Part shown: positions 13,775 through 61,934 of the stretch, one piece after another
How the letters are laid out: every line of letters starts with the position of its first letter
How positions within the stretch are numbered: position 1 is the stretch's first letter
NCBI GenBank assembly: GCA_963752385.1
Contig: CAVVYL010000060.1
Span: forward strand, 9,133 to 73,132
Source of the DNA: an uncultured Acidimicrobiia bacterium
Lineage (GTDB): Bacteria; Acidobacteriota; Terriglobia; Versatilivoradales; Versatilivoraceae
Direction: 5' to 3'
DNA length: 64,000 nucleotides
Program-made: the position numbers and the translations under genes
Notes under the pieces: generated by a model
What the model was told of the DNA's origin: nothing
Database searches by the model: none
Seen by the model: the letters and a program-made list of their open reading frames with translations, nothing else

Positions 13775-14791
13775 ATGCAGGTTGCCGTGATTCAAGCGCC
13801 CCGTCAGATGCAACTGGAATCCTGGACAATACCCCAGCCCGGGCAGGGCGAGGTTTTGGTTTCAGTGCGAGCCGTCGGGGTCTGTGCTGGGGACCTGTAC
13901 ATTTATCAAGGGAAAAATCCTTATGCCAGCTATCCCGCCGTCGGAGGGCATGAGATCGCCGGCGTGATCGCAAGGGTTGGGGCCGGTGTCGCGGGTTTCG
14001 AGCCTGCGGAGCGTGTTGTCGTCGAACCGTTCATAGGTTGCGGGACCTGCTATCCGTGCCGGGTGGGCAAGTCCAATTGCTGCGCAAGGCTTGAGATCAT
14101 CGGTGTCCACCGGCCGGGAGGGTTCGCTGAATTCCTGACCGTACCCGCGCACAATCTTCATCGGATTCCCGACGGGCTTTCTTTCTCCATGGCCAGTTTT
14201 GCCGAGCCTGTGGCCATCGGTGTCCAGGCCTGCCGTCGAGGACAAGTGGCGAAGGGTGAATACGTGCTCATCCTGGGGTGTGGGCCAATTGGCCTGGCTC
14301 TCGTCGAAGTGGCAAGACAACGAGGCGCCCGGGTTGTTGCCACTGACATCCGGCCTTCTCGGCTCGAGATCGCCAAGCAGCTCGGAGCAGAGACGCTTGT
14401 GGCAGACGACCACTTGTTGTCCAGGGTCCTTGATCAGACCAACGGAGAGGGAGCCCCGGTGGTGATCGAGGCGACGGGAGACAGCAAAGCCATCGAGCTG
14501 ACGGTAGAGCTGGTTGCCGCCGGAGGGAGGATCGTGATTGTCGGGCTCATCAAAAGAGGCATCGGCGTGACTTTCCAGGGTCTGGATTTCACGCGCAAAG
14601 AGATGACCATTGTGGGATCCCGAGCGTCGGTGAGCTGTTTTCCTGAATCGCTGGAGCTTCTGGCGAGTGGGGCAGTCCAGTATCCGAAGGTGGCGACCGA
14701 GTTTACTCTTTCGGAGGCGCCCCGGGTGCTGGCTCAGATGGCCCAAGATCCAGCAGCGGTCCACAAGAGTCTGTTGGTCGTGGAGACTTGA
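13775..14791 (+). CDS. zinc-dependent alcohol/polyol dehydrogenase (MDR family)
   Basis: GHEIAG…, structural-Zn Cys cluster CGTCYPCRVGKSNCC and GCGPIGL Rossmann motif. The ATG at 13775 is preceded by AGGAGAGG. Confidence 0.75.
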   Translation: MQVAVIQAPRQMQLESWTIPQPGQGEVLVSVRAVGVCAGDLYIYQGKNPYASYPAVGGHEIAGVIARVGAGVAGFEPAERVVVEPFIGCGTCYPCRVGKSNCCARLEIIGVHRPGGFAEFLTVPAHNLHRIPDGLSFSMASFAEPVAIGVQACRRGQVAKGEYVLILGCGPIGLALVEVARQRGARVVATDIRPSRLEIAKQLGAETLVADDHLLSRVLDQTNGEGAPVVIEATGDSKAIELTVELVAAGGRIVIVGLIKRGIGVTFQGLDFTRKEMTIVGSRASVSCFPESLELLASGAVQYPKVATEFTLSEAPRVLAQMAQDPAAVHKSLLVVET

Positions 14792-14886
14792 ATGTGGGGG
14801 GAGCCGGCCGTCGTCTGATTGATCTGAAGGTCCAGATCGACGCCGGTGTTCTTTCGCAGTTTCCTATAGGGCTGAACAGGTGAACT

Positions 14887-15636
14887 ATGTTGAAGGCGGT
14901 TTCACGAGATCTAACTTTGGTGGACCAAGCTCTGAACCAGCTCGAGGGCTTAATCCTGGACGGAAGTTATGCACCTGGCAATCGTCTTCCTTCCGAAAAA
15001 GAGATGTCTTTGAAGCTCGGGGTCAGTCGTTCGGTGGTTCGAGAGGCCATCCATAGTCTGATCGCGAAAGGGCTGGTTGAGACGCGCACGGGGTCGGGGA
15101 TTTATGTTCGCGACCTGGGTTCACACCTCGTTACGGAGCCGATCAATCTGTTGCTTCGGTCACGCTGGTTCAACACGGACGAGATTCTGGAAGTCCGGGA
15201 GGTTCTCGAAATCAAAATTGCAGGCTTGGCGGCAGAGCGCGCCCAGGCCCGCGACCTCGAAGACTTGCAGGCGACCATTGATGCCCTCGGCAATCCAAAA
15301 CTGGCCCCGGCGGAGTACGCCCAAATCGACGTCGCGTTTCACAATCGCCTGGCGGCAGCGGCGGGCAATCCGTTATTTACGGTACTCGCGAACTCAATTA
15401 ACGACGTCATGATCAATATCCGGTTGCGAGCATTCAGGGTTGACGGCCCCTTGGTCGTGGAGCGCTCAGCCTTCTATCACGGGCACATCCTCGAGAAGGT
15501 ACGCGCACATGACGTCGAAGGTGCCCGCCGTGCCATGGAAGAGCATCTGGCCGAGGCTCGGGACACGTTACGTCGAGCGGATGCCACTTTTGTCAGAACC
15601 GCACGGCAGGTTGAACTGGAAAGGCCCAGCAATTGA
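14887..15636 (+). CDS. GntR-family transcriptional regulator (FadR/FCD subfamily)
   Basis: N-terminal wHTH …LPSEKEMSLKLGVSRSVVREAIHSLIAKGLVETRTGSGIYV… plus an all-helical FCD-like C-terminus. Confidence 0.75.
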   Translation: MLKAVSRDLTLVDQALNQLEGLILDGSYAPGNRLPSEKEMSLKLGVSRSVVREAIHSLIAKGLVETRTGSGIYVRDLGSHLVTEPINLLLRSRWFNTDEILEVREVLEIKIAGLAAERAQARDLEDLQATIDALGNPKLAPAEYAQIDVAFHNRLAAAAGNPLFTVLANSINDVMINIRLRAFRVDGPLVVERSAFYHGHILEKVRAHDVEGARRAMEEHLAEARDTLRRADATFVRTARQVELERPSN

Positions 15637-15677
15637 GCGAGGGTGCCATGTAGCGAGCAACCTCACTGCCGAGGGAA

Positions 15678-17297
15678 ATGGTATTGAAAGCGCCAAAGGA
15701 CGCCGGTCCGGGCTTTTCAGCCAAGAAAGGAATTGGGGGTATGTTTGATTTGAATATCCACACGGCTCGCCTGATGGCCGCGACGACAGTTCTCCAGCCT
15801 CGAATAACCAAGCCTTCCGTTGGGGCAACAGTTCTTGCCTTGTTCCTCTATTTCAGTCTCGGGATCGGCCAACTGGTTGCCGCCGAACCATTGAAGTTGC
15901 ATCCTGAGAATCCGCACTACTTTCTCTTTCGAGGAAAGCCGACCGTACTGATTACTTCCGCAGAACACTACGGAGCTGTGCTCAACCTGGATTTCGATTA
16001 CATCCGGTATTTGGACGAACTTCAGGCGAAGGGCTTGAACCTGACCAGGATCTGGCCCGGGGGCCCATACCTGGAGGTTCCCGGTACCTTTGACATCGCC
16101 AAGAACACACTGGCCCCTTTGGCGAACCGTTTCAGTTGCATCTGGCAGCGGAGTTCCTCTCCTGGCTACAAGCGCGGAGGAAACAAGTTCGACCTCACTT
16201 CCTGGAACCAAGCCCATCTCGCGCGGCTAAAGGACTTTGTGGCCCAAGCCGGCAAGCGCGGAGTGGTTGTCGAGTTAAGTCTGTTCTGTCCCTTCTACAC
16301 CGAGGATATGTGGAATGTGAGCCCCTGGAAGGCAAGCAACAACGTCAACGGAGTCGGAAACCTGGCTCGCACAGAGACGTTGACGTTGAAGAATGGTGGC
16401 CTTCTGGCTATTCAAGAGGCCATGGTGCGCAAGATTGTTTCTGAGCTTAAAGACTTTGACAACCTCTACTACGAGATCTGCAATGAGCCCTATGTCGGTG
16501 GTGTCACACTGGATTGGCAACATCACATCGCCGAGACCATTGTGGAGGCAGAATCTGCCTTTGCCCAAAAACACTTGATCGCCCAGAACATTGCGAATGG
16601 TTCGACGCAAATCGAGAATCCCCATTCAGCCGTTTCCATCTTCAACTTTCACTACTCACGGCCGCCGGATAGTGTTCGGATGAACTATGGGCTTAACCGA
16701 GTGATTGGCCTTAATGAGACAGGCTTCGACGGTCCTGCCGATGCGACCTATCGCATCCAGGGATGGGACTTCATCCTGGCAGGCGGAGCGCTCTACAACA
16801 ATTTGGACTACTCCTTCACGGTGGAACATCCCGACGGGACATTTGTGCCAGATCCAAAAACGCCCGGCGGAGGGAGCCCGGCTTTGCGTAGTCAGCTGAA
16901 GGTTCTCAAAGATTTAATTCACAGCGTCGATTTCATCAGGATGGCTCCTCGCGACTCTGTCGTCAAAGGAGTATTCCCAGCGGGTGCCACGGCTCGGGCC
17001 CTGGCCGATCAAGGCAAGGCCTATGCCATTTATGTTCATCATGGACAGCCCGGGTACGATCACACGAGCACGGGCACGCGGTCGAGACCGCCGTACAAAG
17101 TGGCTCCAGGTCCGCAACAGGTGGAGCTCGTATTGGACGTGCCGAGCGGTTTGTACCAAGCCGAATGGATCAGCACAAAGTCGGGCCATATTGAGAAGAC
17201 CGAGAAATTCAAGAGTACGAGCACACCGCACACCGTGCGCTCTCCCTCCTACTCGGAAGACATCGCGCTTCGCATCAAGCGTCTCGAGGCTGAATGA
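15678..17297 (+). CDS. glycoside hydrolase family 5-like (cellulase superfamily) protein
   Basis: TIM-barrel GH motifs including …LYYEICNEPY… (NEP acid/base motif) and an N-terminal hydrophobic segment. Confidence 0.5.
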   Translation: MVLKAPKDAGPGFSAKKGIGGMFDLNIHTARLMAATTVLQPRITKPSVGATVLALFLYFSLGIGQLVAAEPLKLHPENPHYFLFRGKPTVLITSAEHYGAVLNLDFDYIRYLDELQAKGLNLTRIWPGGPYLEVPGTFDIAKNTLAPLANRFSCIWQRSSSPGYKRGGNKFDLTSWNQAHLARLKDFVAQAGKRGVVVELSLFCPFYTEDMWNVSPWKASNNVNGVGNLARTETLTLKNGGLLAIQEAMVRKIVSELKDFDNLYYEICNEPYVGGVTLDWQHHIAETIVEAESAFAQKHLIAQNIANGSTQIENPHSAVSIFNFHYSRPPDSVRMNYGLNRVIGLNETGFDGPADATYRIQGWDFILAGGALYNNLDYSFTVEHPDGTFVPDPKTPGGGSPALRSQLKVLKDLIHSVDFIRMAPRDSVVKGVFPAGATARALADQGKAYAIYVHHGQPGYDHTSTGTRSRPPYKVAPGPQQVELVLDVPSGLYQAEWISTKSGHIEKTEKFKSTSTPHTVRSPSYSEDIALRIKRLEAE

Positions 17298-17371
17298 AGC
17301 TGTTGAGTTCGACACCGAAGCGGCAAGGACGACGATGCAGCCGTTGAAGCGGCCGAAGCCAAGGAGCAACA

Positions 17372-18340
17372 ATGAAAATCGCTGTAATTGGCGCCGGAGC
17401 AATGGGGAGCGTCATGGGTGGACTGCTAGCCAAAGCGGGAAACCAGGTGACGCTGATTGAGGTCTCGCAGCAAGTTGTCGAAGCCATCAATAGCAGAGGG
17501 TTGCGCCTTGAAGCCAAGTCCGGCGCCACGGAGACCATCCATGTGCCCGCGACCGCTGAGTCCAGCCGCGTGGGCATCGTTGACCTGGTTCTCGTGTTCG
17601 TGAAGTGCTACCACACAGAAGCGGCAGTACACGCGGCATCGCCTCTGATTGGTCCCGACACGATGGTGTTGTCTCTGCAGAATGGTTGGGGTAACGGGCC
17701 AAAGATCAGCGCCATCGTGGGCGAGCAGCGATTGTTGCTGGGAGTGTGTTACCACAGCGCGACTGTTGCAGGACCAGGACACGTCCGGCACGTAGGGCAG
17801 GGTATGACGTTTATCGGAGAGTTGAACGGCAAAATCACTTCCCGGCTGAAACGTATCACCGAGACGTTTGAGAAGGCCGGGATTGAGGTGACCGCCACGC
17901 CTGCTGTCCTCAAGGAGATTTGGTCCAAGCTGGCGCTGAACGCTTGCACGCTGCCGACCTCAGCCCTGCTCCGTTTGTTCTCCCCTCAACTGATTCAACA
18001 CCAGAGCATGCTCGAACTGATGCGTGCCCTGCTGGGAGAGGTTGTCGCGGTTGCCCAGGCCCAACAGATCCCCCTCGACTTCGATGAGCGCTGGGATGTG
18101 ATCACCGGACTGTTGAAGGGCCTGGCGCCAAGTGCCAAGTCTTCTATGTGTCAAGATGTGGAGAAGGGCCGGCAGACCGAGATCGAAGTGATTAACGGCG
18201 CGATCGTGGAGTCGGGTCGGCGGTTGGGCATCGGCACCCCTTACAACGACGTGATGGTGTGGCTGGTGAAAGCATTGGAAGAAACCTTTCAGCAGCCTGG
18301 GTCGCCAGATCTTTCGACGGTGGAGTCCCTGCGCGCTTAA
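17372..18340 (+). CDS. 2-dehydropantoate 2-reductase family (PanE/ApbA) oxidoreductase
   Basis: MKIAVIGAGAMGS Rossmann start and the KLALNA / C-terminal ApbA_C pattern. AAGGAG ribosome-binding site before the ATG at 17372. Confidence 0.7.
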   Translation: MKIAVIGAGAMGSVMGGLLAKAGNQVTLIEVSQQVVEAINSRGLRLEAKSGATETIHVPATAESSRVGIVDLVLVFVKCYHTEAAVHAASPLIGPDTMVLSLQNGWGNGPKISAIVGEQRLLLGVCYHSATVAGPGHVRHVGQGMTFIGELNGKITSRLKRITETFEKAGIEVTATPAVLKEIWSKLALNACTLPTSALLRLFSPQLIQHQSMLELMRALLGEVVAVAQAQQIPLDFDERWDVITGLLKGLAPSAKSSMCQDVEKGRQTEIEVINGAIVESGRRLGIGTPYNDVMVWLVKALEETFQQPGSPDLSTVESLRA

Positions 18341-18417
18341 CGCGTGCGGTATTGACTGCCCGGAGTCCATTGCGTCCTGGTCAGATTCTCACTGTAGTCA
18401 GATGGAGCAGCTATTCA

Positions 18418-19194
18418 ATGACTCGAATTCGCTTCTTTGGTGTGGCTGCCTACGAACTGACCACCGGCAGGGGCCAGCGAATTCTGGTTGACCCGTTTCT
18501 GGATGAGAACCCGGGCAGTCCCGTGAAATCTCACCAGCTCGAGAAGGTCGATCTGATCGTTGTCTCTCATGCCGCGGCCGATCACCTGGGAGACACCGAA
18601 GCCATTGCTCGGCGCACTGGCGCACCGGTTGTGTGTGGAGGCGAGGTCAAAGCCTACCTAACGGCGCGCGGTGTTCCTGCCACCCAGATCCGTGCAACCA
18701 CTTGGGGAATCGCCGTCGAGGTGGCTGGAATCCGCGTGCAGCCGCTGGAATGCCATCACTGGTCGCAGATTCAGATGCCCGACGGCACGTTTGCTTCAGG
18801 AGTGCCCATGGCATTTGTCATTTACACTGACCCTGGGGTCCGCTTTTACCACTACGGTGATACGGCGATCTTCAGCGATATGAAACTGCAGAGAGAGCTC
18901 TATCAGCCCACTATCGGATGTATTGGAATAGCCAACCCTCTTGAGATTCTGGATCGTAACCCCATGCCGGGGCAGATGCTAACCGCCGAGATGAGTCCGC
19001 GCGAAGGGGCGCTGGCTGCAGAATGGCTTGGGCTCGAGACCGTCCTGCCCTGTCACTACATCAATCCGGACTGCGATCAAGTTCGCGAGTTCAACCTTCT
19101 GTTGGAACAAGCCGGGCGGGACGGACGAAAAGTCCCGCGGTCGTTGGTGCTGAGGCCGGGAGAAGTCTTTGCCGCCCCTCCAGGCGTGATTTGA
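18418..19194 (+). CDS. MBL-fold metallo-hydrolase (UlaG/UPF0173-like)
   Basis: …RILVDPFLDENPG…DLIVVSHAAADHLGDT… (HxHxDH-like motif), about 258 aa. The ATG was placed at 18418 inside the longer ORF 18259..19194 by approximate count. Confidence 0.55.
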   Translation: MTRIRFFGVAAYELTTGRGQRILVDPFLDENPGSPVKSHQLEKVDLIVVSHAAADHLGDTEAIARRTGAPVVCGGEVKAYLTARGVPATQIRATTWGIAVEVAGIRVQPLECHHWSQIQMPDGTFASGVPMAFVIYTDPGVRFYHYGDTAIFSDMKLQRELYQPTIGCIGIANPLEILDRNPMPGQMLTAEMSPREGALAAEWLGLETVLPCHYINPDCDQVREFNLLLEQAGRDGRKVPRSLVLRPGEVFAAPPGVI

Positions 19195-42584: not shown

Positions 42585-45278
42585 TCATTCGCAGCGCAAG
42601 GCATTGATCGGGTCAACGCGAGTGGCTCTTCGCGCAGGGAGGTAGCTGGCTAGCAGGGCAACAGCAGTCAGCAACGCGGAAACACCCAGGAAGACGTAGG
42701 GATCGGTCGGCTCCACGCCGAACAGCAGAGTGGAGAGAACGCGCGTGGCGATTAGCGCCGCGACCAAGCCCACTGCGAGGCCGATCGATGTGACTGTCAT
42801 CGCTTCCCGAAGAACCAGCCTCGTGATGTCGCGAGCCTGAGCCCCCATTGCCATCCGGAGTCCCAGTTCGTGCGTTCGCTGCGTCACTGAGTATCCGATA
42901 ACGCCGTAGATTCCAACCCCTGCCAGCATCAGAGCAAGACCGGCGAAAATCTCCAGCATCAGCATGTTGAAACGTGGTCCGGCGAGCGATCTGTACACAA
43001 GGTCCTCCATGGTGCGGACGTCGTAAATCGGTAAATCGGGATCGATGGCCAGAACCTCACGCCGCGCCGCCGCAGCAAGATTGGCCGGATCACCGCTAGT
43101 TCGCAGCACCACAGTCATCGCATGCTGCGGCCAGAGAGCTTGCGGGTAGGAAAAGTACATTTCCGGAATGGCGGCTAAGCCCAAGCCGCGATACTTCACG
43201 TCGCCGACAACCCCCACGATCGTCCGCCAAGGAAACTTGGTCGAAGTCCTGAAGCGCCGCCCGATCGGGTTCTGGCCGGGCCAAAACCGCCGCGCCATCG
43301 TCTCATTAATGACCGCTACCGGAGGACTGTACTCATTGTCGCGAGCTGTGAGTTCACGCCCTCGCAGAAGGGGGATGCCCAATGTGCGGAAGTAGTTCGG
43401 GCTGATCGGGCGGAAGAACGCCATCGGGACATCGCGCGGCGGAGTCTTGCCCTCCATGTAACGGGCTTCCTCGGTTTCGAAGGTCGCGCTGTTGTTTTCA
43501 CTGGTGAAGGGCGCATATCCGGAAGCCGCCGCTGCGTTGACTCCGGGCAGAGATCTCAAGCGTTCGAGGAGTTCGTCGTAAAAAGTGGGTACCTGGCGGC
43601 CTGACCACACAAACGTGTCGCCGGATGGAACGAGTTGGTCCTTGTATTTGGACTCAGGCAGCGCCACACGGAAGGTGAGCAGTTTCTCGGTGCGAAAACC
43701 GGGGCTCACATTTTGCAGGCGCCAGAAACTGAGCATCAGCAGGCCCGCGCCAATAAGGAGCAGGAAGGAGAGAGCCACCTCGGAGGTAACCAGCGCGTTT
43801 CGCAGCCTGCGGTCGCGCGATCCGGTCCCGGCACTGCGACCGGCTTCCTTGAGCGCTGCGTTCAGGTCGAGTTTCGACGTTCGCAGCGCGGGCGCCAAAC
43901 CAAAGACCAGCGCGGCGAGCAGCGATGCCGCGAGCGTAAACGCCATAACGTGCACGTCAATGCCCAGTTCACCGCGACTGCGAACCAGCACACTTGGAGG
44001 GATCACGAGTACCAGCGCCTTCAGTGCCCACTTGGCCAGCACCAGACCCGCAGCGCCGCCGATGGAAGCCAGTACGACGCTCTCAGTCAGTAACTGGCGC
44101 ACGAGACGGGAACGGCTGGCGCCGAGCGCTGTCCGCAGCGCGATCTCCCGGCGCCGCACAGTTGCTCTGGCGAGCAGAAGATTGCCGATGTTGCTGCACG
44201 CAATCAACAGCACCAAGCCGACGGCCCCGAACAGGACCAGGAGACCCTTACGTACATCCGCGACCATTTGGTCGTTCAGCAGGATGACTTTGGCACTCCA
44301 ATTCACGTACTGGGGATAGAGTCGCTCGTCACGGCGTGCCATGGCCGTTAACTCGGCCTGTGCCTGAGCCGCCGAGACGCCCGGCTTCAGACGGGCGAAG
44401 ACCTGAAAGTTGCTGGTGTGGCGGACCTGGCTCTCTTTGGCGCTCATGGCCAGAGGAGTCCAGACCTCCGGCCCGTTCAAGGGGTATTGGAGGATCGGAG
44501 GCGTTATCCCGATCACCGTATGCACTCTGCCGTTGAGAGTGACCGACCGCCCGACCGCCTGGGGGTCCGATCCAAACTGCTGCTGCCACAGCCTGTAGCT
44601 CAGCATCGCGACGGGCGCGGCGCCATCTCTGTCGTCTTCGGCGAGAAAGGTACGCCCGAGTAATGGCGGCACACCGAGCAGTGAGAAGATCCCGGCGGAG
44701 ACGCGGGCGCCACCCACACGCACGGGTTCCGCGCTGGCGATCAAGTTGACCGTCTCATACTCGAGGCCCTCGGTCTGTTCCAAGACATGGCCTTGATTCT
44801 TGCAGTCGAGGAAACTGGCAGGCGAAAGAAACGACTGGCCTGCACGGCTCGGGGGGATTCCCCATATGCCTACCAGCCGTTCGGGGTCGGAGTAAGGCAG
44901 AGGCCGCAGCATCACGGCATTAACGATGCTGAAGATGGCAGTGTTGGCGCCAATGCCGAGGCCAATCGTCGTCACGGCGACCGCGACGAATCCAGGGCTC
45001 TTGCGCATCAGCCGCACGCAGTAACGAAGGTCCTTCCAGAGTGTCTCCATATGCTCCCTCACGGCCGCGATCGCCAGATCCGGCAGTGCTTCCAACAAGA
45101 CCCGCAGCGTGCCCTCTCGGCGACAACGATCGCGAAAAAGGCGCGCCATCTCACTTCCATACTCGTCCCGAAACTCGCCGGGGCAGAGCAGCAGCAGGAG
45201 CCGATAAAACCGATCCGACACAGTTACCTCAAACCGGCCTGGAACCGGGCAGCAAGCTCGCGACCGCTTGGCTGACAA
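42585..45278 (-). CDS. ABC-transporter permease, FtsX/MacB-like duplicated permease (ADOP family)
   Basis: N-terminal PadR-associated extension (…RFYRLLLLLCPGEFRDEYGSEM…), then two FtsX-like four-TM modules with large periplasmic domains. 897 aa, TTG/other start, overlaps the upstream padR. Confidence 0.75.
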   Translation of the reverse strand: MSAKRSRACCPVPGRFEVTVSDRFYRLLLLLCPGEFRDEYGSEMARLFRDRCRREGTLRVLLEALPDLAIAAVREHMETLWKDLRYCVRLMRKSPGFVAVAVTTIGLGIGANTAIFSIVNAVMLRPLPYSDPERLVGIWGIPPSRAGQSFLSPASFLDCKNQGHVLEQTEGLEYETVNLIASAEPVRVGGARVSAGIFSLLGVPPLLGRTFLAEDDRDGAAPVAMLSYRLWQQQFGSDPQAVGRSVTLNGRVHTVIGITPPILQYPLNGPEVWTPLAMSAKESQVRHTSNFQVFARLKPGVSAAQAQAELTAMARRDERLYPQYVNWSAKVILLNDQMVADVRKGLLVLFGAVGLVLLIACSNIGNLLLARATVRRREIALRTALGASRSRLVRQLLTESVVLASIGGAAGLVLAKWALKALVLVIPPSVLVRSRGELGIDVHVMAFTLAASLLAALVFGLAPALRTSKLDLNAALKEAGRSAGTGSRDRRLRNALVTSEVALSFLLLIGAGLLMLSFWRLQNVSPGFRTEKLLTFRVALPESKYKDQLVPSGDTFVWSGRQVPTFYDELLERLRSLPGVNAAAASGYAPFTSENNSATFETEEARYMEGKTPPRDVPMAFFRPISPNYFRTLGIPLLRGRELTARDNEYSPPVAVINETMARRFWPGQNPIGRRFRTSTKFPWRTIVGVVGDVKYRGLGLAAIPEMYFSYPQALWPQHAMTVVLRTSGDPANLAAAARREVLAIDPDLPIYDVRTMEDLVYRSLAGPRFNMLMLEIFAGLALMLAGVGIYGVIGYSVTQRTHELGLRMAMGAQARDITRLVLREAMTVTSIGLAVGLVAALIATRVLSTLLFGVEPTDPYVFLGVSALLTAVALLASYLPARRATRVDPINALRCE

Positions 45279-53507: not shown

Positions 53508-54350
53508 CTACTCGATTTCCAGAATCTTCAACGTATCCCGGAAAAACATCTGTTCCATCATCTCCATGTTGAGTCTGGGCAAGGCGCTCCCGGAAAGCAT
53601 GTCGTTCAGCTTGCGCATCCCCTCAAGGCTGGCGTCAACCGTGGTAAACGGATAATCGCTCCCGAACAGAAGTTTGTTCCAGACTCCGTATTCCTGAAGC
53701 AGCATCAACGAATGATAGAGCTGGAAAGGCCGGTAATGGAGGGCCGAACAATCCGCGTACACATTCGGATGCTTGCGAATGGTGACGACGCACTCGCCTT
53801 CATAGGGATGGGAGAGATGAGCCATGATGATCTTCACCTCAGGAAACCGAATGGCGACGTCGTCAACCAGGCGGGGAAGGGTACATTCCAGCGGGGCCTT
53901 GTCCACAAACGTTGTCCCGGTGTGAAGCAGAACCGGCAACCGGTGTCGAGTAGCGTATTCCCACAAATAGTCCAACGTGCGCTCGTTGGGCTTGAAGCCG
54001 GCATACATGGGAAGAAGCTTGATTCCCTTCATCCTCAGGTCCTGGTGCCCCTGAATCAATTCCTCCTGCCAACCCGGTTGAGTGGGATCGACACAGAGAA
54101 AGGGGACGAGGTTATCTGGATGCTCGTGTACGTACGCAGCGACGTCGGCGTCGGGGACCCATAGTCCCGATAACCTGGCTTTGCCGCCAAAGACGATGGT
54201 CTTGCCGCACTTTGAAGCGGCGGCGTGATACTCCTCCCAGCGCACCGTCAGATCCACTTCGGTACTTCGCGCGCGGCGCGCCTGTTCCCGAAAGCCGTCG
54301 GTGAAGTGTTCGGGATATTTGAAGTAATGGCTATGAACGTCGACGAGCAT
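53508..54350 (-). CDS. amidohydrolase-2 family (TIM-barrel metal-dependent hydrolase)
   Basis: MLVDVHSHYF… (HxH metal motif), …LLHTG…, …IIMAHLSHPY…, …FGSDYPF…. ATG at 54350 inside a GTG-started ORF. Confidence 0.6.
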   Translation of the reverse strand: MLVDVHSHYFKYPEHFTDGFREQARRARSTEVDLTVRWEEYHAAASKCGKTIVFGGKARLSGLWVPDADVAAYVHEHPDNLVPFLCVDPTQPGWQEELIQGHQDLRMKGIKLLPMYAGFKPNERTLDYLWEYATRHRLPVLLHTGTTFVDKAPLECTLPRLVDDVAIRFPEVKIIMAHLSHPYEGECVVTIRKHPNVYADCSALHYRPFQLYHSLMLLQEYGVWNKLLFGSDYPFTTVDASLEGMRKLNDMLSGSALPRLNMEMMEQMFFRDTLKILEIE

Positions 54351-54410
54351 ATTGATCAGTATCGATGACTCAATTCTTTGAGTCACCCGGAAGGCCCAAA
54401 AAATCGTTCA

Positions 54411-55175
54411 TCAACTTTGCCCCGGTGCTAAAGCGGCTTTCATCTGTGAGAGCGCCAGCTCGTTTACTTTTCTTGCCTGCTCGATTTGCTCCAGGATCAG
54501 CTTCCTCTTGAGGCCGTCTTCTTCCTGCTGTCTGGTGAGCACATACATCTCTAAGCTGCTGCCACCCTGACGCAACTTGTCTCTCAGGTCAATTCGCTTC
54601 TGTGCCTTCTCGTCGAGTTGCTCCAGATCCGCCAGTGCCTTGTCGCGTATCCTGGCGCTATCTTTCAACAAGATCAAACTTGCGAGAGAAAGCCGATCGC
54701 TCGCGGAAAGAGCTGGGTCGATCATCAACTCTTTGATCTCGCTTCGTACCTCCGGAGATAACCGGACTAACGCTTGTGGGGCCGTCACTAGCGCTCGGAC
54801 TGATTCAACTAACCGCTTTACCCCCACATCGAAACTGGTCGCCAGGTCGATCCGCTGCAACCCTATCAACTGATACACCATGTCTTTGGGAACGACGGTC
54901 CGTCGGATTTCGACGGGTAGGACCGGTTTGTTGGCTTCCTGCGCAATGTCGAGTTCCTTCCGCACGTTGTCCGATGCAGCGGCATTGGGTGAGAGGGCAA
55001 CCAAAACGACGTCGGCAGCTTCGATAGCATCGACGATTTGCCTACGCCACTTGGCGCCGCCCAGGATGTCTTCACGATCGATCCAAACTGCGACCGCTGC
55101 GGCCTCAAGCTCCCGGACCAGCCTCTCAATAATCTGCGTGTCCTGTCGTGAATAGCTTATGAACACATGTCCCAT
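54411..55175 (-). CDS. TIR-domain protein with C-terminal coiled-coil region
   Basis: N-terminal …VFISYSRQD… and …VLVALSPNAAASDNVRKELDIAQ… (the SxN…S…EL motif with the conserved Glu). The C-terminal 120 aa are heptad-like and charged. ATG 55175, alternative TTG 55187. Confidence 0.65.
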   Translation of the reverse strand: MGHVFISYSRQDTQIIERLVRELEAAAVAVWIDREDILGGAKWRRQIVDAIEAADVVLVALSPNAAASDNVRKELDIAQEANKPVLPVEIRRTVVPKDMVYQLIGLQRIDLATSFDVGVKRLVESVRALVTAPQALVRLSPEVRSEIKELMIDPALSASDRLSLASLILLKDSARIRDKALADLEQLDEKAQKRIDLRDKLRQGGSSLEMYVLTRQQEEDGLKRKLILEQIEQARKVNELALSQMKAALAPGQS

Positions 55176-55363
55176 TCCGGTCTCCAATCAATGCTGGAAG
55201 ACTTGACGACTCCGGTTCAGCCTGCCCGCATTTTTAGGCAGGGCGGCTGCAACAGGCGGGCTAGCCCGTCCTGTTAAGTGGGCCGCAAGCAAGTCGCAGC
55301 AGTCGCAAGGGCCTTAAGTCCAGGTTCAACAGAGTGTGATCGAGTGGGATACGACGGCAAGAC

Positions 55364-56017
55364 TCACTGCCGCTCATAGAACGGGGGCGGCTCGATGCCC
55401 AAAGCGCGCAGGTAGACATACCCTTGGCCGCGATGATGGATCTCGTTGTCGATGACGTAGAAGAGTAGATCGTAGACCCGCCCCTCGTACTGACCGAAGG
55501 CTGTGGTTGTCTCCTGGAAGCGTTGCCGCGGGATCTGCCGCCAGAGGGCATCGATCTGTTTCGTGCTCTCATCCCAGAGCCGAAGAATCTCCTCCCGCGG
55601 CCGGGGCTCGCGAGTTATGGACTGATCCCAATCTCCAGTGACGATACCACGGATCATGGGCAGGGCCATGCTGAGCATCTCAAGGGCCAAGGCTCCGAAA
55701 GGGCGCATGGAGCCCACGGAGAAGGTGAAGAGCCGATCCTCAGGGAAGGCTTCGATCACGCGGCGAGTCAACCGGCGGTGGCCCTGCCAATGTTCCAGCA
55801 GGGCTTCGGGAGTGATGACCACTGCGGCCATCAGGGATCTACTGGCGCCTGTGGCAGTGGCGACTGCCGTGCTGGCAGCCTTTTTGGCTTGCTTGGCAAT
55901 ACCGGGCGTCGAACGCTTCCTGCCGGTCTTCTTCTTAGCTGTGCTCTTTTTGCTCGTGGCACGAGAAGACACCGATATTTTGGACGCAGACTTCTTACCT
56001 CCTCTTTTTGCTGGCAT
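55364..56017 (-). CDS. DinB/YfiT-like (DinB_2) family protein with Lys-rich histone-H1-like N-terminal tail
   Basis: N-terminal 70 aa are KKSASK…KKKTGRK…AKQAKKAAS. C-domain …EIHHRGQGYVYLRALG… is DinB_2-like. Confidence 0.5.
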   Translation of the reverse strand: MPAKRGGKKSASKISVSSRATSKKSTAKKKTGRKRSTPGIAKQAKKAASTAVATATGASRSLMAAVVITPEALLEHWQGHRRLTRRVIEAFPEDRLFTFSVGSMRPFGALALEMLSMALPMIRGIVTGDWDQSITREPRPREEILRLWDESTKQIDALWRQIPRQRFQETTTAFGQYEGRVYDLLFYVIDNEIHHRGQGYVYLRALGIEPPPFYERQ

Positions 56018-56348
56018 TCTTTTGCTCCTTCCGCTGGATCATCAATTGACTTTTCCGATGTCAAGGACCTTACTCTACCATACCCGTGCCATAAGGGAAG
56101 TGGCCCCACCGGCCCTTTTTCGCGCTTCCGGTTGAGCACTGGGTGATGCGGCGAATTCACCACGAAATCGTTCCAATAGATCGTACAAATCCTCGTCCGA
56201 GATAGGCGACAGAGCCTAGCAAGACTCTCATAGGCCAGCCTTCCCCGTTCCGTAGTTACTTCGTTTCCTTGTTTCGGGCTTGCCATAAGGGACGGGCGGG
56301 CATCTTTGCTCCGCTTTCCGCAGTTCGAGGTTGGATTTTACACCATGA

Positions 56349-58712
56349 TCACTGGCTGACCGGCTTCGGCTTGGCGAGGTGCTCGATCAGTTCGAGCACT
56401 GCACGGGCAGCCTTCTTGGCTGCCGGTTGGCCGCGCGCGATGTACGGGTCGAGGACGAACCGCGTCGTGTCGGAGACCGAGCTCCACTGCGTCCCTCCTT
56501 GCGATCGCTTGAAGACGTCACGGAACGATCGTTCGATGGCCGGTAGGTCCTTCGGCAGGGTGTTGCGCGCCACGGCCTCGTACAGGCGCAGCTCCGGCTC
56601 GGCGACCAGGCTCCAGAAGTCCGGGCTGGACTGGTTCTTCCCCCGGACACTGCGCCGCGCCTCTTCGAACAGTTCCGGAGGCAGACCTTTCCATTTCGCC
56701 GTCCCGGCGCGCAGAACGAGCTCCGCGGCAATCAGATTGATGGCCGGGTAAAACAGATCAGCGGCGTCGCGCTTGCGGCCGATCTCCAGCGCGCGCTGGT
56801 AGTGCGCCGCCATGGCCTCGACCGCGTGTCGTGCAGCTTCGGGGCGCCCGACGCCCGCTTCGAGCATCGCGAGGCGTTTCATCGCGGAGCCACGAAGGCT
56901 TTCGCGTTCCGAAGTGTTCCGAAACGCCGTCAACTGCTTGAAGACCTTCATCTCGTCCTTGATGGTCGTGCGAGCTGATGCCATGGCGACGCGTAGCTTC
57001 GCGCTGGCGGCAGCGCGCTGTCGCGCCACGGTCGGGCCGCCGGAGGCGCGGCGCCTGCGCCCGCCATCGTCTGCCGGGGCGGCCGCCAGCCGCTCGCGCT
57101 TCGACTGCGCCTCCTGAACGGCGTTCCACGCGTGCCGGATCCGCAGGTTGCTCAGCTGCTCGAGAATTCGGAACGAGACGTCTCCCTCCGCGTGCTCGAT
57201 CGCGGTTTCGTACCAGCGAATGGTGCTGGGCACGTCGTCTGCGGCGCTGTAGGCACGCGCGAAGAGCTCAGCCACCTCGCTCGCGTCCCAGCGCATCTTC
57301 TGCCACCGTTGCTCGAGCCGCCGCACGCGCTCGAGCTGATACGCCGCGTCGTATCCCTGAAACGTGGACTGCACCACCAAGGTCTCGAGGGCCAGCTGCA
57401 GCGCGGGTACCGACCCCACGTCCTCGAACTCGTCATCGGGCGCCTGCGGTGTCTTGCTCCAGCCGCCCCGGCCCCCGAACGTCCAATCGGGATCGCCGTA
57501 ACACTGATAGGCCGCCCACGTGTTGCCGTCGAACTCGAATGCCTTGGCGCGCGCCTCAGCCACGGCGTCGATGAGTCGCTGGCCTCTGAGCAGCGCGTCG
57601 TAGAACGTGGTCGCGAACGCGCTCGCGGCCTGATCGTCCACGGCCCAGCCGGCGGCGACGACGCACCGAACACCGATTTCGATGAGCGCTTGAGCGACGC
57701 TCGACGCAAACGCCGCGCGGTCGTACAGGCCGCGTTGCGAGGGACGGAGCAGGGAGCTGCGCGAGCCGGCCGCCAGGTGGCAGCAATTGACGAACACGAG
57801 CTCCGGCACGACGCGCATCGCCTTGATTTCGTTGGCGCCGAGGAAGGTGTCGTTCGACAACACCACGCCGCCACGGTTTCCTTTCCTGCTCAGCGGCTCG
57901 CCGTGCCCGGCGACGTGAACCACCCGCCAATTCCGCTCGAACAACGCATCCACGACCTGGCGGGCGTCGGGTCCGTCCTGGAGCTGACCCCCGGCAAACA
58001 AGTCCTTCACGCAGTCGCGATCGAGCCCCGGATTGGACGTGAGGAGACCGAAGACGTCCTTGGCCTCCTGCAGCGCGCCGGGCAGCGGCGGATACTCGGG
58101 CGGGCAGCGCGGCTCGCCAATCACGAGGATCGAAGCCTGCGCATCGGCGTCCGTGACCTGTGGGCGGAAAGTCTCGGTCCTGTACTTCCGGAGCAGCTTC
58201 GATCGAATCGCCCATGGTGGCCGCGGCGCCTGCGTCGCAACCGCGTCGTCGAGCAGCTCCCAGGGAATGCCGGCCGTGCCCTCATCCACTTCGATCTGAG
58301 TCTCACCCGAGCCGGCGAGAAAAGCCTCCAGCTCGATCGGAACCAGCAGGTTGTAGAGCGTGCGGCCGATCTGTGCCTCGGTATTCGGCTCGCTCGAAGC
58401 CGTCGCCACGAGATCGCGTAACAGCCGCGGCTGCGTCGCTTGAGCTCGTACTTCGGTGCGCGCGCGCTTGGTGTCGAGCGCGTACGCAATGAACGTGTTG
58501 CCGTTCACGTCTCGACGGGTTTCCGCCGTGATGAAGTCGTACTCAACGCCGCGATACCCCGACTCGAGTGGTCGTCGCAGCGATCCCGTCCCGGCCACAA
58601 TGGGCTCCGCGACACGGTAGCGAGACGGTGTCGCTTTGGCCTGCATCTTCAGCGCTTCCCACGCTTCGGTGGCGCGGCTCAAATACAACTCGATGAAGCG
58701 GAGCTCGCGCAC
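56349..58712 (-). CDS. CHAT-domain (caspase-fold) peptidase with C-terminal helical/TPR-like region; probably the C-terminal part of one larger frameshifted gene
   Basis: …GIPWELLDD…, His-Cys dyad context …VVHVAGHGEP… and …ELVFVNCCHLAAG…. The reading frame stays open upstream of the annotated GTG start into 58543..60798. Very high GC. Confidence 0.65.
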   Translation of the reverse strand: MRELRFIELYLSRATEAWEALKMQAKATPSRYRVAEPIVAGTGSLRRPLESGYRGVEYDFITAETRRDVNGNTFIAYALDTKRARTEVRAQATQPRLLRDLVATASSEPNTEAQIGRTLYNLLVPIELEAFLAGSGETQIEVDEGTAGIPWELLDDAVATQAPRPPWAIRSKLLRKYRTETFRPQVTDADAQASILVIGEPRCPPEYPPLPGALQEAKDVFGLLTSNPGLDRDCVKDLFAGGQLQDGPDARQVVDALFERNWRVVHVAGHGEPLSRKGNRGGVVLSNDTFLGANEIKAMRVVPELVFVNCCHLAAGSRSSLLRPSQRGLYDRAAFASSVAQALIEIGVRCVVAAGWAVDDQAASAFATTFYDALLRGQRLIDAVAEARAKAFEFDGNTWAAYQCYGDPDWTFGGRGGWSKTPQAPDDEFEDVGSVPALQLALETLVVQSTFQGYDAAYQLERVRRLEQRWQKMRWDASEVAELFARAYSAADDVPSTIRWYETAIEHAEGDVSFRILEQLSNLRIRHAWNAVQEAQSKRERLAAAPADDGGRRRRASGGPTVARQRAAASAKLRVAMASARTTIKDEMKVFKQLTAFRNTSERESLRGSAMKRLAMLEAGVGRPEAARHAVEAMAAHYQRALEIGRKRDAADLFYPAINLIAAELVLRAGTAKWKGLPPELFEEARRSVRGKNQSSPDFWSLVAEPELRLYEAVARNTLPKDLPAIERSFRDVFKRSQGGTQWSSVSDTTRFVLDPYIARGQPAAKKAARAVLELIEHLAKPKPVSQ

Positions 58713-60798
58713 CTCCGGCAGGCGCTGGCGCGCCGAGGCTCGACGAATCAGCTCGTTGGCTTCGTAGCACGCCTTGTGCGATGAGCTGCGCAGCCTGACC
58801 GGGCGTCACGCCGGTACCGCCGCTGGACAGCAGCGTGGTCGCCAGCCGCAGCGGCGCGATGGGGCCGCCCCCCTTCTCGGCCACCCGCTCGGCCCAGGCA
58901 ATCACCGCCTGCCGCACCGTAAGAACGATGTGCGCCGACTGCAGCTTGCCTTCCTGACCAAGGCCGATGACGATCACCGCTTCTGGGCGTGGCGCCGGCC
59001 AGAACTTGCCCTTCGGAATTTGACGATTGATGAAGATGCGATGCGTACCCGGCTCGACCGGGTACACGCCGAGGTCGAGCGCATTGGTCATCGCGCGATC
59101 GAGCAACCGGTCGACGACCTTTTCGGTTCCAGTGAGACGGGTCGCGCGGTAGTGCCCAACCAGCAGCGGACGCTCTTCGAAGGTCAGATCGCCGTTGATG
59201 ACGGTGATTCCAAGTTTCGCCTCGGGCTCAGCCGCGACCGCCCGTGCGGCCCGACCCGTAAACCGCGCTCGCTTGGCCGCGACCGGTCTCCCTCCGGCGA
59301 TGGCCGGCACTGACACTCCGGCCGCACCCGCGCGGAGCAGACGCCGATCGGGCAATTGCTGGGCGGGATCGAGCGGCGCCAGCTTCTGCGCCTGGTCGTT
59401 GAGCGCCGCGACGAGAAACGCCACGGTCTCCGGCTGCGCGAAGAAGTTGACGTGGGTGACGTCGTCGCGGTCGATGTTGCCCCCTGGCCCGAAGCACCCG
59501 ATGCGCGATCCCGGGATGAACGTGCCGCCCGACGGGTCGACGCGCCATCCCCCTTCCGACGGCACCACAAGATCGTTGGCCGTGTTGAAGAACTGATCGA
59601 TGCCCATATCGAGCAGACGCTCAAGCACGGTGCTGCCGGGGTTGTAGTTGGCAGCCAACACGGAGTACCGGTCCGCGGGCGGGCCGGGCGGAGACTGGAG
59701 CTCGCGGATCAGATCGCCGTCCCCATCCATGGAGTGAATGCCCGGCAGGTCGCCCGACGCATGACGCGCGATCCACACGAGACCGTGCGCCACGAACTCG
59801 GCGCCGGTCGTGAACGGGTTCTCAGGAAACAGCTCGAGCAGATTGGCGACCCACCCGACCGTGTCCTCCCACCGCGACGGCGTGGCGAGCGGCGTGCCTT
59901 CATTGGGCGCTGCGACGATGATGGCGCGGCCGAGCGTGAAGCGGGACGCCAGCGCGCCGAACGCGTCCCGCCGCTCGACGAGGTTCCGCAATACCAGCCC
60001 GCCGCGGGAATGTGTGATGACGTCGAAGGTGAAAGCCTTGTCCGGCAGCTCCTTCAGGAGCATCCGGACGTTTTCTTCCGGCGTGCGGCTGATGGAAAAG
60101 TGATCGAACGCGAAGATGCGGTCGCCGTACAGCGGCGCCACTTCCTCGAAGAAGTTCGATTTCGCCAGCGAAGCGAACGCGCCGGAGGCGTTCGAAAAGG
60201 TGCCGTGCACGAGAAGCAGGGACCGCTCCGTGGAAGACGGCTTGCCAGCGTCGAGTCGGCCACCTACGAGCCCCCCCTTCGTGACCTTGAGCCAGCCTTC
60301 TTTGAGTCCCTTGGACTTCCAGACGGCCGTTTCGAAGGCCAGAGCGAGCTTCGACAGCACAAACCCCACGGCGGCGTCGAGGGCGGCGCCTGCGACCTTG
60401 ACGATTACGGCCTTGATGGCCTTGCTGACCACTCCGCGGCTGGTCGTGAGATCGCTCCCCCCGAGGTCCGGCCGAATGGGCGCGATGAATCGCACTTCGA
60501 CCGGCCCGCCGCGGGTGCGGCTGGTTGTCGTGCGTGGCGCATGAAAGGTCAGTGCTCCAGAGGCATGGCGCAGGGCGAGCACGGCAGATTCGCCCGGCGA
60601 TAACTCGTAGGTGATGTCGAGCGCGCTCGGTGCAGCGGCGGCGCCGCGGACGGCGGGCCGAGCTTGCGCGACGAACTCCTCTGTGCTCTTCGCTTGAGTG
60701 AGGAACTCAGGCGGCAGGCTCGGAATACCGGCCCCCAGCCCGCGGGTCGTTGCGGCTGGTTGGATGTTCCAACCGGGAGAATTCAGTTTGATCGCCAT
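58543..60798 (-). CDS. alpha/beta-hydrolase (lipase/esterase-like, PGAP1/DUF676-type) protein; its 3' end (about 58543-58790) looks out of frame and continues in frame with the CHAT ORF
   Basis: ATG 60798 with GAGGAG ribosome-binding site. …LLLVHGTFSNASGAF… and …FDVITHSRGGLV… (GxSxG nucleophile elbow). The last roughly 80 codons are Arg/Ala/Gly-rich nonsense, typical of an off-frame high-GC read. Confidence 0.55.
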   Translation of the reverse strand: MAIKLNSPGWNIQPAATTRGLGAGIPSLPPEFLTQAKSTEEFVAQARPAVRGAAAAPSALDITYELSPGESAVLALRHASGALTFHAPRTTTSRTRGGPVEVRFIAPIRPDLGGSDLTTSRGVVSKAIKAVIVKVAGAALDAAVGFVLSKLALAFETAVWKSKGLKEGWLKVTKGGLVGGRLDAGKPSSTERSLLLVHGTFSNASGAFASLAKSNFFEEVAPLYGDRIFAFDHFSISRTPEENVRMLLKELPDKAFTFDVITHSRGGLVLRNLVERRDAFGALASRFTLGRAIIVAAPNEGTPLATPSRWEDTVGWVANLLELFPENPFTTGAEFVAHGLVWIARHASGDLPGIHSMDGDGDLIRELQSPPGPPADRYSVLAANYNPGSTVLERLLDMGIDQFFNTANDLVVPSEGGWRVDPSGGTFIPGSRIGCFGPGGNIDRDDVTHVNFFAQPETVAFLVAALNDQAQKLAPLDPAQQLPDRRLLRAGAAGVSVPAIAGGRPVAAKRARFTGRAARAVAAEPEAKLGITVINGDLTFEERPLLVGHYRATRLTGTEKVVDRLLDRAMTNALDLGVYPVEPGTHRIFINRQIPKGKFWPAPRPEAVIVIGLGQEGKLQSAHIVLTVRQAVIAWAERVAEKGGGPIAPLRLATTLLSSGGTGVTPGQAAQLIAQGVLRSQRADSSSLGAPAPAGGARAPLHRVVFEPRHRSVGSAEDAGQSDTVSLPCRGAHCGRDGIAATTTRVGVSRR

Positions 60799-60911
60799 TT
60801 ACACTCCTCGGCTCGATAGACGAACGCTTACGACGCCTTAGATTGGGAGCTTGCTGAAAATGTACCAGTGTCAAAGAAACAAAGAGACCTTATCTTCCCT
60901 TCATCGGCCGG

Positions 60912-61934
60912 CTAGCCAGCTTCGGGGACCGGCCACCATCCCGCGAGGCCCATTGTGGCCCACGCGGTACCGACGTAGACGATTGGTTTGAGATCACGGG
61001 CAGGGCCCGGTCCCGGTGGCTCGGCGGATCGTGAAGTCATCTGCCACGATCCGTCCAGCTGCTGTGTGTCGACAAGGAACCTGGTTGCGCGCCGGACAGC
61101 TTCGGCGACACCGGTATCTCTCGATCCCCTCAAGACATAGAGGGCTTGGCCGGTGGCAAAGGCGTCGCTCTTCATGTTCGGCGTTTGGCTCCAGCCTCCC
61201 GCTGCATCTTGTTCGCGCAATAGAGCCGCCACCAGCTGTTTCTTCTGGTCGGAAGCCCCACCCAGCTTCGAGAGCACCATTAGGCGCATAGTTAATGATT
61301 GGTGGTTTGTATCGGACCCGGACCCCATGCGAGTGAGCCACTGCACGGCTTTGTCACGCTGGATCTTCCATCGGTCTACTTCACCTTTCTTGGGAGACGT
61401 CGCGAGGGCCAAATAAAACCAACTCGTCTGGACATCGATTGAGCCGTGAACAGGCGGACGACCACCCTTGTTGGCGTTCCACGAGCCATCTGCCATTTGC
61501 TGAGTCACCACGCGATCCAGCAACGTCTGCTGTACCTTCTCAGTCCAAGAGTCGCCGATTCCCGATCCCATGATCGCGAGAGCCATATTGAGCGGACCAA
61601 GGTAGTCGGGTTCACTTCGTTCCTTATCCAATGGCAAATCGGGGAACACCTTGGCCAGATTACCGTCCAACGCCCAGGATGTAGCCTGGTTGATAGCCTC
61701 CACGTTCACCGGATAGCCGCACTTTCTTCCTTCGCCCAGACCCCAAACCATGAGGGGGATGTGGTGGCAGGAGGCACACTGCTGCTTTTTCATCCACGCC
61801 AGACCTTCCTTTTCCAAAAAGGCAAGGCCACGTTCCACCGACTGGCGCACCTGAAGAGACGAGGAGCTGTCTGAAGGCGAGCTTGCCAGCGAGACACTCG
61901 CGACCACTGTGATGAGAAGCTGCGAAAAATGCAT
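60912..61934 (-). CDS. secreted protein with CxxCH motif and prenyltransferase/squalene-oxidase-like (terpenoid-cyclase QW) repeats
   Basis: Signal peptide, CASCH, and repeated Q..DGSW motifs (QQMADGSW, QDAAGGW, QQLDGSW). Confidence 0.5.
   Translation of the reverse strand: MHFSQLLITVVASVSLASSPSDSSSSLQVRQSVERGLAFLEKEGLAWMKKQQCASCHHIPLMVWGLGEGRKCGYPVNVEAINQATSWALDGNLAKVFPDLPLDKERSEPDYLGPLNMALAIMGSGIGDSWTEKVQQTLLDRVVTQQMADGSWNANKGGRPPVHGSIDVQTSWFYLALATSPKKGEVDRWKIQRDKAVQWLTRMGSGSDTNHQSLTMRLMVLSKLGGASDQKKQLVAALLREQDAAGGWSQTPNMKSDAFATGQALYVLRGSRDTGVAEAVRRATRFLVDTQQLDGSWQMTSRSAEPPGPGPARDLKPIVYVGTAWATMGLAGWWPVPEAG

Follow-up and report, generated by a model that had tools for sequence, protein, structure and literature searches.

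A single extra base splits a lipase-like hydrolase–macro–CHAT–TPR-S gene in an acidobacterial genome: a damaged or mis-assembled member of a candidate bacterial conflict family

The window analysed here is a stretch of 64,000 nucleotides (nt) of contig CAVVYL010000060.1, taken from an uncultured bacterium. Two overlapping open reading frames (ORFs) on its minus strand, deposited as two coding sequences, are almost certainly one gene with a 1-nt lesion. The order of the encoded parts is an N-terminal beta-rich domain, a DUF7379 alpha/beta-hydrolase, a disordered linker, a divergent macro domain, a small beta domain, a CHAT caspase-like protease and C-terminal TPR-S repeats. The best overall explanation, with a probability of roughly 0.65, is that the gene is a broken copy of a lipase–macro–CHAT–TPR-S family that functions in biological conflict. 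An earlier inspection of the letters and their translations (the sequence-only reading) had proposed a frameshifted fusion of a hydrolase and a CHAT protease with an effector or conflict role, and most of what it proposed is upheld below.

Two reading frames, one gene

The two minus-strand ORFs run from 60798 to 58543 (751 amino acids, aa) and from 58712 to 56349 (787 aa) and share 170 bp, the overlap that the sequence-only reading had described. It had also suggested that a single indel between 58750 and 58805 separated the two parts of a fused protein of about 1480 aa. At the junction the window reads GGCGTG[C]TACGAA and the syntenic relative L001, whose DNA is 98% identical there, reads GGCGTGTACGAA; the indel is therefore one C at 58767. 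Conceptual deletion of this base produces an uninterrupted ORF of 1,482 aa with zero internal stops, close to the predicted size. The features of the gene as a whole are as follows.

56349 to 60798, minus strand: whole gene, 1,482 aa after removal of the extra base at 58767
58767, minus strand: single inserted base (C on the coding strand, G on the plus strand), located by the L001 alignment and the repair test
58543 to 58766, minus strand: out-of-frame tail of the first ORF, 74 codons and a stop, rich in Arg, Ala, Gly and Ser; homologues align in the other frame

The best match of the repaired protein is P0001, a protein of 1,483 aa with 96% identity over 100% of the length, encoded on L001, which is syntenic with the window on both flanks. 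Three metagenome contigs (L015, L016 and L017) encode proteins of about 96–97% identity in an unbroken frame. As had been noted, the second ORF can be read on upstream in its frame to about 58805, where it encodes sensible protein (...KACYEANELIRRASARQRLPEVRELRFIELY). Because of the extra base, the first ORF ends in 74 out-of-frame codons, and this tail is not genuine protein sequence, in line with the earlier impression that the last 80 or so codons were nonsense.

The GTG at 58712, annotated as the CHAT start, is an internal Val in all homologues, and a GGAG touches it directly, leaving no spaced ribosome-binding site; a separate CHAT gene with a start and ribosome-binding site of its own, which the sequence-only reading had named as the alternative to a fusion, is thus not what is found. 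The ATG at 60798 has a GGAGGAG upstream of it. A promoter and terminator scan of 54300–61100 found nothing above chance. As written, the copy would give only the 751-aa product, ending inside the macro domain, and the CHAT half has no usable start of its own; the locus is therefore either very recently inactivated or mis-assembled. In the model secondary structure the lesion, at aa 677/678, interrupts the macro domain in the helix just after its SSGGTGV loop.

Comparison with the L001 gene gives a ratio of nonsynonymous to synonymous substitution rates (dN/dS) of 0.16 for the gene as a whole, with 0.11 before the frameshift and 0.23 after it. Besides the lesion there is no further stop, and the sole other indel is one in-frame codon. 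The low dN/dS and the lack of a second lesion indicate that the frameshift either arose very recently or stems from an assembly error.

These two explanations survive best. A genuine inactivating mutation of very recent origin, which would make the gene a young pseudogene, has even odds. The lesion context is not homopolymeric, the gene looks recently acquired, the window lacks the caspase-like partner gene of the family, and the locus is in flux, with a TIR gene deletion and a transposase-like remnant (both described below) differing between close relatives. Costly or self-toxic defence genes often gain inactivating mutations after acquisition. However, there is neither a second lesion nor any sign of relaxed selection, and a lone base is indistinguishable from an error by the assembly alone. 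An assembly or sequencing error, with an intact and functional gene in the organism itself, falls just short of even odds. No other lesion occurs in 4.4 kb, the coding sequence on either side of it is under purifying selection, the gene is unbroken on four near-identical contigs, and the sequence comes from a metagenome-type assembly, on a contig of 144 kb. Most indel errors fall in homopolymer runs, however, and the extra C (GTG[C]TAC) lies outside any such run. In addition, the lengths of the remaining genes match across the approximately 13 kb that are syntenic with L001, and the assembly is therefore not generally indel-prone.

A functional split, with separate hydrolase and CHAT–TPR proteins (the public record of the source contig has two coding sequences, of 751 and 749 aa) or programmed +1 ribosomal frameshifting, is very improbable and was rejected: the break falls mid-helix in the macro domain and is followed by the nonsense tail, the candidate starts of the downstream ORF are internal residues in all homologues and have no spaced ribosome-binding site, relatives of 96–98% identity need no frameshift, and GTG-C-TAC offers no slippery or stop-codon context.

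Domain organisation

Structure was taken from an AlphaFold2 (AF2) model of a 75%-identical homologue, which covers aa 1–1196 with a mean predicted local distance difference test score (pLDDT) of 73. Conservation was scored as invariant positions among 83 aligned homologues. The parts of the repaired protein, all on the minus strand, are listed in order.

60394 to 60798: N-terminal beta-rich domain, aa 1–135, from the model secondary structure
59389 to 60231: alpha/beta-hydrolase DUF7379 (PF24096), aa ~190–470, Pfam E=1.7e-42
59218 to 59370: disordered Arg/Ala-rich linker, aa 477–527, pLDDT <50
59332 to 59370: near-invariant DPxxxLPDRRLLR motif, aa 477–489, in the otherwise disordered and poorly conserved linker
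58632 to 59217: predicted divergent macro-fold domain, aa ~528–722, three-layer alpha/beta/alpha in the model (530–722)
58428 to 58631: small beta domain, aa ~723–790 (727–787 in the model), with conserved YRG..YDF and DTKRARTEV
57468 to 58427: CHAT caspase-like cysteine protease (PF12770), aa ~791–1110, with His965 (HVAGHG) and Cys1005/1006 (VNCCH)
56352 to 57467: C-terminal helical repeats, aa ~1111–1482, helices from aa 1134, TPR-S match at 56727–57032

The serine-hydrolase, CHAT and TPR-like parts that the sequence-only reading had recognised, together with its motifs VHGTFS, HSRGG, VHVAGHG and VFVNCCH, are all present, and the DUF7379, CHAT and TPR-S matches all exceed the Pfam cut-offs. 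The N-terminal domain (aa 1–135) has no Pfam match and was assigned to no family, and an NCBIfam search placed neither ORF in a family.

DUF7379 membership is supported by the profile match, the nucleophile elbow and a candidate catalytic triad of Ser264 (HSRGG), Asp409 (NDLVVP) and His449 (THVNFF), which was picked by motif conservation. This part would be lipase- or phospholipase-like, an activity suggested solely by its fold neighbours. In the linker that follows, P478, L482, P483 and R489 are invariant in 83 of 83 homologues; the DPxxxLPDRRLLR motif is a candidate cleavage or docking site.

The CHAT profile matches with E=1.7e-29 and 103.6 bits against a cut-off of 24, and the catalytic His/Cys dyad is found on a caspase-like fold. 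The match to TPR-S (PF20308; Tetratricopeptide Repeats-Sensor) has E=2.5e-7 and 31.6 bits, a small margin over the cut-off of 27.6, and precomputed TPR-S matches exist for about half of the homologues. Residues invariant across the 83 homologues include HG..S, HSRGG, Asp and His of the hydrolase, His and Cys-Cys of CHAT and a set in the macro domain. All of these family-invariant catalytic and macro residues are intact in the window copy.

The divergent macro domain

The region between the hydrolase and CHAT had been read as a linker. Beyond the short disordered segment it is in fact made up of a macro-like domain and the small beta domain, and the frameshift falls within the former. The three-layer alpha/beta/alpha macro fold is present in the predicted structure, and the invariant residues of the domain include N535 (in NGDLTF), G548-H549-Y550, G557, E559, G612-L613, E616-G617 and S658-G659-G660. 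By eye, GDLT resembles the GDIT of macro domains and SSGGTGV resembles their SxGxxG loop 2.

Several results count against the assignment, which comes from predicted structure only. There is no Pfam match at E<=10 to aa 500–720, and so no macro family; a 25-sequence profile of the domain has no match at E<=10 among the sequences in the PDB; and the N-x6-GGG region reads GHY...LTGTE, again by eye, so that the canonical catalytic Asn motif is apparently replaced. PDB sequence searches with the full protein gave 0 matches and those with the full-family profile gave chance-level matches only (E>0.2). As no sequence-level match to Pfam macro families or to solved macro domains was found, the segment is best described as a cryptic, divergent macro domain, as predicted by the model.

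It is improbable that this domain serves as a de-ADP-ribosylase enzyme, or in a purely structural, scaffolding capacity, as the macro-like N-domain does in leucine aminopeptidases, rather than as a ligand sensor. The catalytic Asn motif is not conserved and the glycine-rich loop 2 (SGGTG) is kept, a comparison made by eye and not a rigorous one, while the combination of a sensor domain with CHAT is already an established design in SAVED-CHAT (bioRxiv 10.1101/2023.06.23.546230).

The family and its interchangeable heads

A search with the repaired protein found more than 700 relatives. The sequence-only reading had not recognised the architecture, which is not unusual in databases: the same DUF7379, CHAT and TPR-S combination occurs in over 100 of the best 120 of these relatives, full-length proteins of about 1,460–1,500 aa labelled ‘CHAT domain-containing protein’. 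When 1.84 billion representatives were searched with a profile of the macro and beta module, 1,288 clusters at 50% identity matched with E<=1e-10. The relatives come from Acidobacteriota, Vicinamibacteria and beta- and gammaproteobacterial metagenome-assembled genomes (MAGs).

The constant core of the family is macro–beta–CHAT–TPR-S, with an interchangeable N-terminal head in the following forms.

DUF7379 alone, as in the window gene: ~1,480 aa
DUF7379 and a second, LCAT/PGAP1-like lipase (LCAT E=2.6e-6): ~1,880 aa
nSTAND1 NTPase: E=4.5e-36
no head, core only: ~930–1,030 aa

A form with an LCAT-like head and no DUF7379 is not established because it was seen solely on ORFs truncated at contig edges (L058 and L061). 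That heads are exchanged while the regulatory core stays constant is a typical trait of conflict systems (e.g. PMC8195603). Two of the head forms stand in tandem at L065, where a paralogue with an nSTAND1 head in place of the hydrolase (8798–12913, 1,371 aa) is followed by a double-hydrolase paralogue (12969–18629, 1,886 aa).

The hydrolase–CHAT fusion is thus already catalogued, being covered by a DUF model in Pfam and present in hundreds of database entries, but it is unstudied. A literature search for TPR-S with CHAT, caspases or conflict systems found nothing, a broader search returning only general fungal-immunity and genome papers, and the hydrolase–macro–CHAT–TPR-S architecture is not described in Kaur et al. 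2021 (PMC8195603). New in the present analysis are the recognition of a cryptic macro domain, the modularity of the heads and the association with a caspase-like neighbour.

Gene neighbourhoods

Neighbours were compared by clustering 513 ORFs from 89 loci; the loci collapse to 73 groups at 90% identity. No partner is universal to all family loci: the gene either has no such companion or directly adjoins a caspase-like gene, and less often it neighbours TIR genes. The top neighbour cluster is a Peptidase_C14 caspase-like protein, present in 27 of the 66 groups with usable flanks (about 40%). It lies within 236 nt in 19 of the 27, often on the same strand and just upstream, and its adjacency is significant when compared with all neighbouring ORFs (Fisher p=8e-9). 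ORFs with a TIR domain are found in 12 of the 73 groups, within 450 nt in 7 of the 12.

The sequence-only reading had placed the gene in a cluster with TIR and DinB-like genes. Both are present in the window, but DinB is not a recurrent partner and TIR is not an obligate one; the recurrent partner of the family is C14. The DinB gene (55364–56017) was rejected as a functional partner because it shows ordinary conserved synteny, shared with the closest relative only, and is not recurrent. It lies between the gene and the TIR gene, which is on the same strand 1,162 nt downstream.

54411 to 55187, minus strand: TIR-domain gene, 258 aa; TIR_2 E=5.4e-25, ThsB_TIR E=6.9e-6, and PADLOC TIR models

A dedicated TIR partner was also rejected, the TIR neighbours being heterogeneous; the window TIR gene is possibly an island neighbour and not a conserved partner. 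The window and its closest relatives offer a contrast: the relatives have an intact CHAT gene without TIR, and the window has TIR together with the frameshifted CHAT gene.

Three further arrangements were observed. At L030 (6395–13758) a Peptidase_C14 gene (279 aa), a gene for an unknown protein (347 aa, without Pfam match), the DUF7379–macro–CHAT–TPR-S gene and a TIR_2 gene (314 aa) follow one another on the same strand with gaps of 4, 85 and 45 nt. This cluster is the best candidate operon. An uncharacterised protein of 345–450 aa without Pfam match is encoded directly upstream on the same strand in 7 locus groups, mostly at 7–85 nt (for example L005 8885–9991, L030 7238–8281, L033 5234–6586, L034 1–1077 and L068 2747–3811), and could be a further component. 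A separate TPR-S protein of about 470–700 aa (TPR-S E=2e-15, with a MAP3K_TRAF_bd-like region) adjoins the gene in 5 locus groups, such as L003/L008 (5835–7934) and L072 (5425–6834).

No cas genes were found in the five annotated recurrent neighbour clusters or in the Pfam-annotated contexts of seven relatives; the window was not scanned for CRISPR arrays.

Base composition, horizontal acquisition and host

The two halves of the gene have a guanine plus cytosine (GC) content of 0.668–0.670 and a third-position GC content (GC3) of 0.78–0.82. Neighbouring genes have 0.55–0.60 and 0.64–0.71, respectively, and the window overall has a GC content of 0.581. The difference in GC content between gene and flanks in the lineage of the window and L001, +0.086, is the extreme among 47 relatives' loci (median +0.02), with a GC3 of 0.78 in the gene and 0.66 in the flanks. 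With 67% GC against 58% for the window, the gene stands clearly above its surroundings on computation, and the higher GC content noticed by eye and the horizontal transfer drawn from it are both sustained. As the largest gene–flank offset fits recent horizontal acquisition, base composition supports such an acquisition by an Acidobacteriota genome.

Just upstream of the gene, L001 (3835–4286), L015 and L016 have an extra 452 nt that are absent at the window junction 60902/60903. This segment includes a translation resembling a transposase N-terminus (LLPDMIDDYIGKDNPGRW) and may reflect a mobile element at the site of insertion. The host phylum follows from an ADOP duplicated permease (TIGR03434, E=8.7e-299) at 42585–45278 on the minus strand of the window, a family that is a hallmark of Acidobacteria.

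A partial copy, P0283, falls in the same 90%-identity cluster as P0001 and is labelled as coming from a Burkholderiales MAG, on a 3.4-kb contig, whereas the surroundings in the window are acidobacterial. The label reflects either a mis-binned short contig or a very recent transfer between phyla. Elsewhere in the window, a 609-aa ORF (10325–12154, plus strand) is ribulose-phosphate 3-epimerase-like at aa 42–253 and D-2-hydroxyacid/phosphoglycerate dehydrogenase-like at aa 330–602. This makes it an unusual fusion or, possibly, a read-through of two genes.

Proposed role of the family

The family is rated as a CHAT protease of the type fused to a sensor domain, as in conflict systems, and its members would most likely be conflict proteins that combine a protease with a lipase and are triggered by a ligand or an invader. 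A role in conflict or cell death, whether anti-phage or in programmed cell death, is somewhat favoured, and it agrees with the effector or conflict role that the sequence-only reading had suggested and with the neighbourhoods across the family.

A more specific signalling scheme can be outlined, although we consider its particulars doubtful. A trigger, either a ligand or an invader, would be sensed by the TPR-S repeats, the macro domain or both, with the macro domain perhaps binding an ADP-ribose-type nucleotide. This would switch on the CHAT protease, which may then cleave the partner pro-caspase where present, its own linker, or both. The lipase head, once freed or activated, would attack membrane lipids, causing growth arrest or death. 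There are precedents. Cyclic oligoadenylate activates SAVED-CHAT, which then cleaves PCaspase (bioRxiv 10.1101/2023.06.23.546230). In type IV Thoeris a TIR protein makes N7-cADPR, which activates a caspase-like protease, and in type II Thoeris a macro domain senses His-ADPR (bioRxiv 10.1101/2024.10.24.620036). Finally, alpha/beta hydrolases are lipid-targeting effectors in bacterial conflict systems (PMC8195603).

In its fullest form, which is speculative and unlikely as a whole, macro–CHAT–TPR-S would be the receptor–executioner arm of an undescribed immune pathway. A second messenger derived from ADP-ribose, made by nearby TIR proteins or another NAD-consuming enzyme, would bind the macro domain; the activated CHAT protease would cut the neighbouring pro-caspase (Peptidase_C14) as well as its own LPDRRLLR linker; and the released phospholipase head would destroy the membrane. 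If true, Thoeris-type signalling, a cascade of the SAVED-CHAT/PCaspase type and a lipase effector would be joined in one system.

A number of observations tell against a conflict function. There is no Peptidase_C14 homologue anywhere in the window. Across the family, the neighbouring TIR proteins differ in architecture and are 30–38% identical to the window TIR protein, a heterogeneity that looks like co-location in defence islands rather than a dedicated signal generator. Moreover, the 783 nt at window 54496–55278, which span the sequence upstream of the TIR gene and the greater part of the gene itself, are absent from the closest relatives L001 and L017. These keep the last 28 TIR codons at 90% identity (L001 9784–9858, L017 5126–5210), which suggests that the TIR gene has probably been deleted there. 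Many loci, such as L009 and L013, have ordinary metabolic neighbours, and genes at the loci were called by a crude method based on GC3. PADLOC has no model for the family, its sole weak match being SAVED_CHAT at aa 938–1082, in the CHAT part (E=7.7e-6), and a literature search on DUF7379 found nothing.

The ordinary neighbours and the missing PADLOC family, along with a fold match to the anti-sigma factor DdvA, would suit a regulated housekeeping protease–lipase, acting in envelope or lipid remodelling or in anti-sigma-type signalling like the CHAT protein DdvA, or else a toxin against other cells. Either is unlikely. The recurrent links to C14, TIR, TPR-S and nSTAND1, the swapped heads, the patchy distribution among phyla and the signature of horizontal transfer are traits of conflict systems, and an extracytoplasmic function (ECF) sigma factor is not among the recurrent neighbours. 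A secreted toxin in particular was rejected, with no signal peptide, transmembrane segment or secretion-system neighbour seen by eye (no dedicated predictor was run) and no secretion genes among the recurrent neighbours.

The preferred explanation, a broken copy of a conflict family, corrects an annotation: two deposited coding sequences become one gene with a 1-nt lesion, probably acquired horizontally. The window copy itself is broken and has no C14 partner gene, and intact relatives exist elsewhere in the family (L001 and L015–L017). More broadly, approximately 1,300 clusters at 50% identity in Acidobacteriota and Proteobacteria, known only as ‘CHAT domain-containing protein’ or DUF7379, gain an organisation in which a predicted macro fold takes the place of SAVED, lipase and NTPase heads are swapped and a caspase-like gene is the commonest next-door neighbour. 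This makes the family a concrete candidate for a defence or cell-death system of a new kind, built on a protease cascade.

Comparison with known systems

Several groups of systems invite comparison. Csx29 (TPR-CHAT, of the type III-E Craspase) and separase also combine such repeats with a protease of this kind. In Csx29, however, the TPR is N-terminal and in the present family it is C-terminal. The family has macro and hydrolase domains that Csx29 lacks; it has no Cas7-11 partner. Type III-E Craspase is marked by association with Cas7-11/gRAMP and a CRISPR array, and no cas gene was seen in the annotated neighbour clusters or the contexts of seven relatives.

The hydrolase recalls the lipid-targeting conflict effectors surveyed by Kaur et al. 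2021, the CBASS patatin CapV and Legionella PlaB. It differs from them in being covalently fused to a presumed regulator and in belonging to Pfam DUF7379, a family without a characterised member.

Thoeris types II and IV also offer parallels. In 12 of the 73 locus groups, the window included, TIR genes are found near the family gene, and a caspase-family protease is the output in type IV (bioRxiv 10.1101/2024.10.24.620036), although the protease here is CHAT and not the type IV caspase. Unlike Thoeris, the family has no conserved two-gene operon of TIR and effector, and its TIR neighbours are heterogeneous and absent from the closest relatives. The predicted macro domain is also nearer to MacroD- and macroH2A-type folds than to the ThsA macro domain.

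The SAVED-CHAT/PCaspase pair forms a signalling cascade of type III-B CRISPR and is also associated with CBASS. In the present family a CHAT protease is likewise fused to an N-terminal domain that is presumed to sense a ligand. A separate Peptidase_C14 gene adjoins about 40% of the family loci, in the manner of the SAVED-CHAT/PCaspase cascade (bioRxiv 10.1101/2023.06.23.546230). The family differs in that the sensor position is occupied by the predicted macro fold, no SAVED sensor being found, and in its additional lipase-like heads and TPR-S tail. Its recurrent neighbours include no cas genes, cyclases or CD-NTases, and the window has no C14 gene. Overall, the family bears a resemblance to the SAVED-CHAT/PCaspase pair and to types II and IV of Thoeris. 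If the proposed role is correct, it would extend the recently described bacterial links between TIR/ADP-ribose signalling and caspase-family proteases.

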